From Ostreococcus lucimarinus (Eukaryota), in NCBI GenBank assembly GCA_000092065.1, contig CP000600.1: a DNA stretch of 64,000 nt, one strand, 5' to 3'. Under the pieces are notes generated by a model, which searched no databases, was not told the DNA's origin, and saw only the letters and a program-made list of their open reading frames with translations. Shown here one piece after another: positions 12,701-14,653 of the stretch. Position 1 is the stretch's first letter. Every line of letters begins with the position of its first letter. The position numbers and the translations under genes are program-made.

Positions 12701-14653
12701 CAATTTTCGTGAATAACAAGCGAAGGAGCGAAACACGCGCTTGTAACGTCTCCGCCCGTTCGCACGCTTCGCCGAATATGGCACACATCTTCATCTCCAA
12801 CTTTTTCACGCGAGACTTGAACGCGGCGAAATCATCGTGCCATCGCATCGAGGACACATCCAAAATATCATACTCAATCTTGGTCAAGTCATTTATCGCG
12901 ACATCAAGGAAAACGCGACGGATTACTTCAAGTCGATCGTCGAGCCTGTAACGCACCACGTTCGCTGCGCTTGGGAATGAGCGAGACGCCGGCGGCGCAA
13001 ATTGTTCTTGCGCTTCGCACAATTCCAACAGATCTCTGCAACGATGCGCGAATGCATCCAAATGCGAAAACACGGTCGTCGCATCAATCAACAGTGCTCC
13101 ACTGCTCTCGATCGCCGCGCGCTCGAAGTATATATTCTTCCACACATCAGCCACGAATGCGCACTCGCGAAGAGTACAAACTGCGCCGTTGTACGCTTCT
13201 TCGTTCGAACCATCGTTCTGAATGATGTGGTTCAGATTCAACTCACCTTTGCAAATAATCATAATTTGATCGGCGATACGTTTAAGCAGGTCCACATACT
13301 GATCACTGACCGCGTCTTTGATGTTTGAATCCGTATTCAGCCACGCCAGGAAGATTGCGTCAACGAGGCGCGGCAAGATTTGCGGGACGTCTGCCAGTCG
13401 TGCGACGCTCAAAGCTTCGCATGCGGGCTTGACGCGGCTGAACATGTCACTGATGCGTTCAGCCAAGTGAACTCTGTCGACGATCAACTGTTCAAACGCC
13501 GCGATGTCATCGCACAGGTAGTTTGCGTTTTTCTGCGACGCGAGTTTCTTCACAATCAACCGAACGCTTTCCGATTGCAGCTGTTCCTGAACACCGCGCA
13601 AGTCCGTCGCGCGTTCGGGCCAAAACTTCATGATGCGCATCAAAGGTCCATCGGACTGTACTCGTTCGTCCAGTCTCTGTGCGTCGCGCTTGCTCTCGTC
13701 GTCTTCGCCGACGTCCCCGCCGCGCCCGAGCACCTGGCGAAGTTGACGGGACCAGTTTGCGACGACGCTCTCCAAGTTACCAGTACTCTGATCATCTGGA
13801 ACGTACAGCACTGTTCGATGGGAATTCGACGCATCGAGCAATTTGGACATGAACGTGTGCGCATGAGCCGCGAGATCGGTCAACGGTGAACTCGTTTCTA
13901 TACTTTTGATTGCCCTTTGCCGCATCGAACACGCGTACACGCCGGCCATGAACCGTTGAAGAGTCTTGATCGTCGCCGCATGAGAACTCAAGTGTACGAC
14001 ACTTACATCACTACCGAGCGTATTGTAACCCGTTGGCTCTCCCTTAAGAATACTCAACGTGTGACTCGCGCGAAAGAGCACAGATACGCGACGAAAGGCT
14101 TGGGGAATTCCCTGCGTGACTCGTATGACGCAAACATCTCCAGAATCTTCTTTACGCACTATTTGTGCGTGTGCAAATAACACGAAAGGCGATCCGTCGC
14201 CTTCGCTCGCGATTCCATCGAAGAAGCCATCAATCAAATCGACGCGTTCCTACGTCGGCGCCGCGCGGAGCGTCAGTCGGTCAAAGACTAGAGCTCGAGA
14301 CGACGCACCTCTTCTACGATCGCATTTTCAATGATATCACTCCAAGTAGATTTATCAATCTTGAGTCCAGCGTCTCTCGCGAGCAAGTGTGTCGATACAC
14401 GTTCACGGATCCATCGCGCTCGGTCTTCGCCGCCGAGGCCGCTCGCGCTGTCGCCCGCGCTCGAAGTCTCGGACGGAGCGGGCGACGACGCGCGCGAGAT
14501 ACACGGTGACGACGCGGTGACGTTCGCGACGATTGAGGACTGCGTGATCGCCGTCATTACGCGCGCCTGGCGGTCGTACGTGCCCTCCTCGTCGTCGTCA
14601 GCGTCGTCGAATAGTGACGCAAATTGACCTCCAAAAATATCTTCGGTGCGCAT
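738..14653 (-). CDS. Axonemal (outer-arm type) dynein heavy chain, about 4618 aa; two exons: complement(join(738..14249,14309..14653)) with a 59-nt intron at 14250..14308
   Basis: The continuous 4504-codon ORF carries the AAA1 P-loop GPAGTGKTETVKD...FNCSDGVDY...GLAQTGAWACLDEFNRI, which matches axonemal DNAH-type chains rather than the cytoplasmic motif (GPAGTGKTESVK...FNCDE).

The big ORF has no ATG near its 5' end: its tracked start is TTG, preceded by an in-frame TAG. On the minus strand that TAG is the acceptor of an intron: gtgcgtcgtctcgagctctagtctttgaccgACTGACGctccgcgcggcgccgacgtag.

The intron joins an in-frame 115-codon exon 1 (ATG at 14653) that the track lists as a separate 121-aa ORF (14288..14653). 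Confidence 0.9.

Follow-up and report, generated by a model that had tools for sequence, protein, structure and literature searches.

We analyzed a 64,000-nucleotide (nt) stretch of the Ostreococcus lucimarinus genome (assembly GCA_000092065.1, contig CP000600.1; hereafter the window) and found that the dynein heavy-chain gene on its minus strand very probably begins with a real and ordinary exon that is missing from the annotation: a 115-codon exon 1, separated by a 59-nt intron from a long exon 2 that continues in frame. An earlier reading made from the letters alone (the sequence-only reading) had taken a 121-amino-acid (aa) open reading frame (ORF) just upstream for the first exon of the dynein. 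This interpretation is supported by splice signals typical of the species, by the conserved position and phase of the intron, by coding-type evolution of the exon, and by the lack of any other entry into the dynein frame. That the intron is actually removed, and which AUG is used, we infer from the sequences. Coordinates below are positions in the window, with the minus strand read for the dynein gene, and all frames were recomputed from the sequence. The locus contains the following elements:

14653–14309, minus strand: coding part of exon 1, 345 nt or 115 codons, frame and translation recomputed for this allele (MRTEDIFGG...AIVEE)
14653–14651, minus strand: proposed start ATG, opening the exon-1 frame
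14308–14250, minus strand: putative 59-nt, phase 0 GT..AG intron, GTGCGTCGTCTCGAGCTCTAGTCTTTGACCGACTGACGCTCCGCGCGGCGCCGACGTAG
14308–14303, minus strand: 5' splice site GTGCGT, next base C (donor GTGCGTC, 14308–14302)
14278–14271, minus strand: branch-point box GACTGACG; 20 nt separate its ACTGAC from the terminal AG
14252–14250, minus strand: TAG, containing the acceptor AG (14251–14250) and acting as the in-frame stop at the upstream limit of the dynein frame
14249–738, minus strand: exon 2, 13512 nt including the stop (4503 codons plus stop), beginning ERVDLIDGFFDG; I1 inner-arm 1-beta heavy chain
13925–13923, minus strand: start ATG of the reference model (XP_001422630.1 / A4SAL0), Met224 of the spliced model

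The absence of an ATG from the 5' end of the 13.5-kb dynein ORF, the starting point of the sequence-only reading, was confirmed: in exon 2, a Met codon first appears at codon 101, and the 100 codons before it are ATG-less. The opening codons from 14249 (GAA CGC GTC GAT TTG ATT GAT GGC) are in frame with the TTG at 14237, at which the ORF lister starts a dynein ORF of 4499 codons. An in-frame TAG precedes this TTG as had been claimed, but it lies four codons ahead of the TTG and is not adjacent to it. On the other side of the interval, exon 1 closes with ATC GTA GAA GAG (...IVEE), and unspliced read-through meets a stop after VRRLEL, six codons past exon 1, creating the 121-aa ORF (14288–14653). 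Removal of the intron joins the two reading frames in phase, and its retention breaks the frame; the same holds for related contigs L002, L005, and L017. The spliced model predicts a junction-spanning tryptic peptide, STWSDIIENAIVEEER, and an N-terminal peptide sequence, FASLFDDADDDEEGTYDR.

The interval closely resembles introns that have been confirmed with expressed sequence tags (ESTs) in O. lucimarinus outside chromosome 2 (Irimia & Roy 2008, PMC2483917). Those introns have the donor consensus GTGCGTG, contain ACTGAC in 87% and the extended form GACTGACG in 66.5% of the cases, place the AG 20–35 nt from the branch point, and favor C at –5 and a purine at –4. The dynein donor GTGCGT(C) fits the consensus, the GACTGACG box is present, the branch-to-AG spacing of 20 nt falls inside the peak, and the acceptor CGTAG agrees with the CGCAG preference at –5 (C) and –4 (purine). 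It differs in being short, 59 nt against a median of 111 nt for all predicted introns of the species, and in ending in TAG rather than CAG. The donor and the in-frame acceptor had both been correctly recognized from the sequence alone, while the proposed distance of 24 nt from branch point to AG was not reproduced, the branch adenosine and the intron's 3' end being 23 nt apart. On four sequence criteria, the interval reads as a U2-type GT-AG spliceosomal intron of the O. lucimarinus non-chromosome-2 class. It is missing from the annotated introns because the reference gene model begins downstream of it. The composite signal GTGCGT..GACTGACG..YAG occurs five times in the window, compared with 0.25 occurrences expected from first-order Markov simulations (128 kb of both strands), and the dynein copy coincides with the 5' boundary of the ATG-less ORF and is in phase with it.

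To compare the locus across lineages, we used contigs L001, L002, L005/L006, and L017 for the exon and the intron and ten O. lucimarinus-like metagenome contigs for the alleles. The related contigs share the layout of neighbor gene, small ORF, and dynein. The intron is found at the same codon boundary in five lineages, always as GT...AG, with lengths of 59, 68, 69, 83, and 94 nt. Given these lengths, no read-through keeps the frame without a stop, and in every lineage reading through the interval either hits a stop or breaks the frame. Four of the five lineages have an intact exon-1 ORF in phase 0. Compared with L002, an Ostreococcus-like species with ~70% nucleotide identity and a 68-nt intron, all exon-1 indels are multiples of three, while the intron shows two indels, of 5 nt and 4 nt, and indels of other than 3n length are confined to the intron. 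Within the L002 intron, the GTGC, an identical 13-nt block, GACCGACTGACGC, and the boundary TAG/GAACGC are kept, and the remainder has diverged.

In L017, exon 1 consists of 90 codons ending RTIIEE/GTGCGT (GAAGAG/GTGCGT) in phase 0, and the 69-nt intron contains TTGACTGACC and ends at the junction AG/GAGCGCGTA (also given as AG/GAGCGCGTAGGCATTCTGGATGCATTTTTC), after which exon 2 has no ATG at its start. L005/L006 has an exon 1 of 93 codons ending SVVE/GTGGGT, followed by an 83-nt intron in phase 0 and then AG/GAGCGCGTG. In L001, a low-GC relative, VIE/GTTCGT...TTAG/GAACAT gives a 94-nt intron in phase. The boundary TAG/GAAC is kept in L002 and L001, and L005 and L017 instead show AG/GAGCGCGT. 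As an alternative donor in L001, we considered a strong GTAAGT at 254 but rejected it as out of phase; the in-phase GAG/GTTCGT at 267 matches the other lineages.

Exon 1 evolves as coding sequence. Against L002, its ratio of nonsynonymous to synonymous change (dN/dS) is 0.35 (Fisher p=1.7e-5), with 29, 22, and 46 differences at the first, second, and third codon positions, respectively; the adjacent ATG-less first part of exon 2 has a similar dN/dS of 0.22. The peptides encoded by exon 1 alone are significantly similar in a chain connecting the lineages (window–L002, 1.5e-40; window–L017, 1e-10; L017–L001, 4e-5; L005–L001, 8e-5), and they share the pattern ARW[IV]xERVxxH[LV][LF] and a terminal [VI]xE.

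The beginning of exon 2 is also conserved as protein. Between the AG and the TTG lie four codons, which differ mostly at third positions among the five lineages (GAA CGC GTC GAT; GAA CGC ATC GAT; GAG CGC GTA GGC; GAG CGC GTG GGG; GAA CAT GTG GGT), encoding ERVD, ERID, ERVG, or EHVG, and in three lineages an in-frame stop is found immediately upstream. Protein sequence that is conserved and ATG-less up to the AG, with a stop in frame before it, argues that the frame must be entered by splicing. The alternative would be a dynein translated without splicing, from the non-AUG TTG at 14237 or from the internal Met216 or Met224, and a 121-aa ORF that is either an unrelated small gene or noncoding. 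In its favor, the reference annotation starts at Met224, prokaryote-style callers choose the TTG, and in L001 (373–378) and L005 (955–960) exon 2 starts with ATG-ATG where Ostreococcus has TTG-ATT. We nevertheless consider it very improbable: coding conservation extends past Met224, Met216, and the TTG up to the AG, the interval holds the full set of species-specific splice signals, conserved across lineages, and exon 1 has maintained a compatible phase in four of them. Furthermore, the tail of the supposed small gene past VEE is conserved neither in sequence nor in length, being VRRLEL* in the window and an unrelated stretch of 27 residues, VQHFISSSCVRPTDALRVGSRHRNASI*, in L002, which fits an intron and not a genuine small gene.

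One could also suppose that an open frame and a GT and an AG occur beside the long ORF by chance. Spurious ORFs are indeed frequent in GC-rich DNA, and dozens of overlapping ORFs longer than 200 aa are listed for the window. The probability of this explanation is nevertheless close to nil, given the rarity of the composite splice signal and its exact, in-phase position at the ORF edge, the purifying selection on exon 1, and the conservation of the arrangement in five lineages; the comparative data effectively refute it.

Some observations weigh against the gene model of two coding exons. The exon-1 homologue of L001 contains a TAA (255–257) three codons ahead of the in-phase donor. The ATG-ATG at the beginning of exon 2 implies that translation could begin there in L001 and L005, and the start may have shifted into exon 2 in these lineages. 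In the window allele, an out-of-frame ATG (14666) precedes the proposed start by 13 nt, and strains of the L004 type have no in-frame ATG before Met33, such that codons 1–32 are perhaps not always translated. Exon 1, and the first ~200 residues as a whole, had no detectable similarity to the N termini of Chlamydomonas 1-beta or human DNAH2 in searches of the Protein Data Bank with single sequences and a four-sequence profile. Searches of the protein collections recovered no product spanning the junction, a weak negative as the collections are mostly genomic and the word index used has poor recall, having missed identical long proteins. Similarly, an exact scan of the JGI metagenome contigs, an essentially genomic collection, gave 0 matches to the spliced junction ATCGTRGAAGAGGAACGCRTCGATTTG.

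The choice of the start codon depends on three further elements:

14666–14664, minus strand: upstream ATG (ATG1), 13 nt upstream of ATG 14653, out of frame here; L002 and most natural relatives have it in frame
14629–14628, minus strand: GG run, site of a 2-nt indel deciding whether ATG1 or ATG 14653 is in frame
14557–14555, minus strand: Met33 codon, conserved in all Ostreococcus-like sequences and the first in-frame ATG of L004-type strains

Nine of the ten O. lucimarinus-like metagenome contigs have GGGG instead of GG at the indel site; in the remaining one, L004, 4 nt are inserted at this place. With two extra G, ATG 14666 comes into frame (MNRQNAHRRYFWRGQFASLF...) and ATG 14653 falls out. 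Both alleles are frequent in natural populations: 41 contigs have the 121-aa ORF, and 107, 404, and 116 contigs have the 126/152-aa ORFs. Each common allele of the indel retains one in-frame ATG. In the dynein of L002, the homologous ATG1 is in frame and serves as the start of the ORF. L004 and P0174 have lost both upstream ATGs, and their dynein frame is still open (apart from N-run gaps in the scaffold). The extreme N terminus of the dynein is, by these sequences, variable: recomputation reproduced the earlier claim of a 4618-aa protein starting MRTEDIFGG, but that start is valid for this allele only.

Polymorphism around the start extends into the leader. In the CCE9901 allele, ATG1 opens a frame of 22 codons (14598–14666, minus strand) that overlaps ATG 14653 and would be an overlapping upstream ORF if inside the messenger RNA (mRNA). 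The 5' leader above ATG1 (14666–14680 in the window; L003 and L008–L011) is length-polymorphic in natural populations. Among the variants are L008, L009, and L011, in which CTCCGAGAAGA(TGAA) is tandemly duplicated; the duplication in L009 adds a further in-frame ATG.

A variant of the gene model accepts the intron and exon 1 but places the start at Met33 (ATG 14557), making codons 1–32 a 5' untranslated region and the protein 4586 aa long. Met33 is present in every Ostreococcus-like sequence, the region upstream of it harbors frame-changing indel polymorphism in natural populations, the ORF survives in L004- and P0174-type strains without either ATG, and the most upstream ATG of the region lies out of frame in the window allele. 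We regard this start as improbable all the same. Codons 1–32 look coding in the comparison with L002 (dN/dS 0.30, p=0.02), the stretch from FASLF to Met33 differs in length from that of L002 by 9 nt (three codons), an in-frame upstream ATG is retained by both common alleles, and L002 itself begins at the in-frame homologue of ATG1.

Another polymorphism was found within exon 1 (14450–14486, minus strand), where a 19-nt micro-inversion distinguishes the window, reading TCCGTCCGAGACTTCGAGC, from L003 (~3050–3120), which carries the exact reverse complement of this sequence. The site is bounded by a perfect 9-nt inverted repeat, GTCGCCCGC / GCGGGCGAC, and the inversion preserves the frame, changing PAPSETSSAG to PALEVSDGAG.

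The space available upstream also bears on the model with exon 1 as the first coding exon. The next gene is transcribed divergently:

14734–15888, plus strand: divergent neighbor gene, 384 aa, XP_001422450.1, an exact match to a protein of O. lucimarinus CCE9901

Its start codon and that of the dynein (14653) are only 80 nt apart, which leaves no space for an additional upstream dynein exon. Under the model, transcription of the dynein would start in this shared gap. Its translation would begin within exon 1, with this allele using ATG 14653 and the commoner one the ATG that precedes it by 13 nt, and proceed through the 115 codons to ...IVEE. After removal of the canonical U2-type GT-AG intron of 59 nt, with its GTGCGT donor, GACTGACG box, and AG 20 nt past ACTGAC, the frame would resume in phase 0 as ERVDLIDGFFDG... 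and continue for 4503 further codons, giving a product of ~4618 aa from two coding exons.

The sequence-only reading had suggested comparison with outer-arm beta and gamma heavy chains, and this family assignment was wrong. Among solved structures, the gene is most similar to Chlamydomonas I1 1-beta (8glv chain Co; 4561 bits), followed by DNAH2 (3418/3377 bits), with the next classes at most 2889 bits; the Chlamydomonas outer-arm beta and gamma chains reached 2002 and 1895 bits. The gap in bit scores identifies the gene as a 1-beta heavy chain of the two-headed inner-arm dynein I1/f, orthologous to Chlamydomonas DHC10 and human DNAH2, not an outer-arm chain. Its dynein architecture of DHC_N1, DHC_N2, and AAA is seen as Pfam hits on the 4499-aa product of near-identical contigs and in full-length alignment to the solved chains. 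The best full-length match, 1-beta (DHC10) of the I1/f dynein of Chlamydomonas reinhardtii, has a similar length (4513 aa) and the same architecture, and the dynein tail aligns from its residue 127 on, corresponding to ~residue 207 of the spliced model. The region before the alignment is ~80 residues longer in Ostreococcus.

The O. lucimarinus gene had been assigned to IAD-1beta by phylogeny (Wickstead & Gull 2007, PMC2239267). The same study reported that IAD-1alpha, IAD-1beta, and IC138 persist in the nonflagellate O. lucimarinus and O. tauri, "a most surprising result." Both the gene itself and its oddity in a nonflagellate were therefore already known. Unlike Chlamydomonas, O. lucimarinus builds no flagellum (PMC2239267), and "axonemal" accordingly names the family and not necessarily the function. 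Exon 1 might, as a speculation that we consider unlikely, represent a lineage-specific N-terminal extension in Ostreococcus and its metagenomic picoalgal kin, possibly re-targeting the I1 dynein to a nonaxonemal role, with the N terminus varying through the 2-nt indel that toggles the two starts. The putative extension carries the conserved motif EDxxARW[IV]xERVxxH[LV][LF].

The current database records follow the pattern that had been predicted for gene finders, with the NCBI model starting at the internal Met224 and metagenome callers emitting a separate small ORF. An exact look-up placed the reference protein (XP_001422630.1 / ABP00947.1 / UniProt A4SAL0, "Dynein-1, subspecies f," 4395 aa) at 741–13925 on the minus strand. 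It is identical to residues 224–4618 of the spliced model. Of the 223 N-terminal residues that it omits, exon 1 encodes 115 and the ATG-less beginning of exon 2 the other 108. Among them is the block TLQRFMAGVY, which aligns with Chlamydomonas residues 127–140; this alignment and the conservation upstream of Met224 among the relatives show that the annotated start is too late. Prokaryote-style and metagenome callers report the 4499-aa TTG-start ORF and, separately, exon 1 as a "hypothetical protein" (89–185 aa; e.g., 121, 126, or 152) on hundreds of contigs. The full 4618-aa model had no exact match in a collection of 15 billion proteins.

The result corrects the model of one of the few dynein genes that an alga without a flagellum has retained, a puzzle already pointed out in 2007, and adds no new biology. 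The N terminus of the dynein heavy-chain tail is the site of chain dimerization and partner binding. Studies of the expression or localization of the Ostreococcus I1 dynein, as well as structure modeling, require the 4618-aa protein instead of the 4395-aa entry. The case also exemplifies lone short 5' introns that escape eukaryotic annotation in intron-poor genomes as well as prokaryote-style metagenome calling, leaving hundreds of public contigs with exon 1 listed as a spurious protein.

Around the dynein, the gene order is conserved between the window (14734–24436) and L003, L004, L005, and L007–L017: the divergent 384-aa gene is followed by an ankyrin-repeat gene and a proteasome subunit, with a succinate dehydrogenase flavoprotein nearby. 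The G+C content is ~50% in the dynein gene, compared with 58–71% in the flanking genes and a window mean of 60% (window 1–16000 vs 16000–64000). The drop matches the dynein gene itself and no larger compositional domain, and may reflect low expression or weak codon bias. We rejected the chromosome-2 "outlier region" as a cause of the low G+C and the short intron, the intron signals being of the non-chromosome-2 type and the record being a 549-kb chromosome.

In L017, the dynein frame is broken again downstream (5712–6586), with separate calls at 3001–5712, 5987–6586, and 6510–8712, which suggests extra introns that O. lucimarinus lacks. Within the window, the other four copies of the composite signal look like introns of other genes. 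Intervals with GTGCG(T)...GACTGACG...YAG, probably introns of other genes, are found at 34910–35220, 35324–35604, and 63517–63614 on the plus strand, at 17570–17397 on the minus strand, and possibly at 37939–38049 on the plus strand; two of them use the identical donor GTGCGTCGTC.

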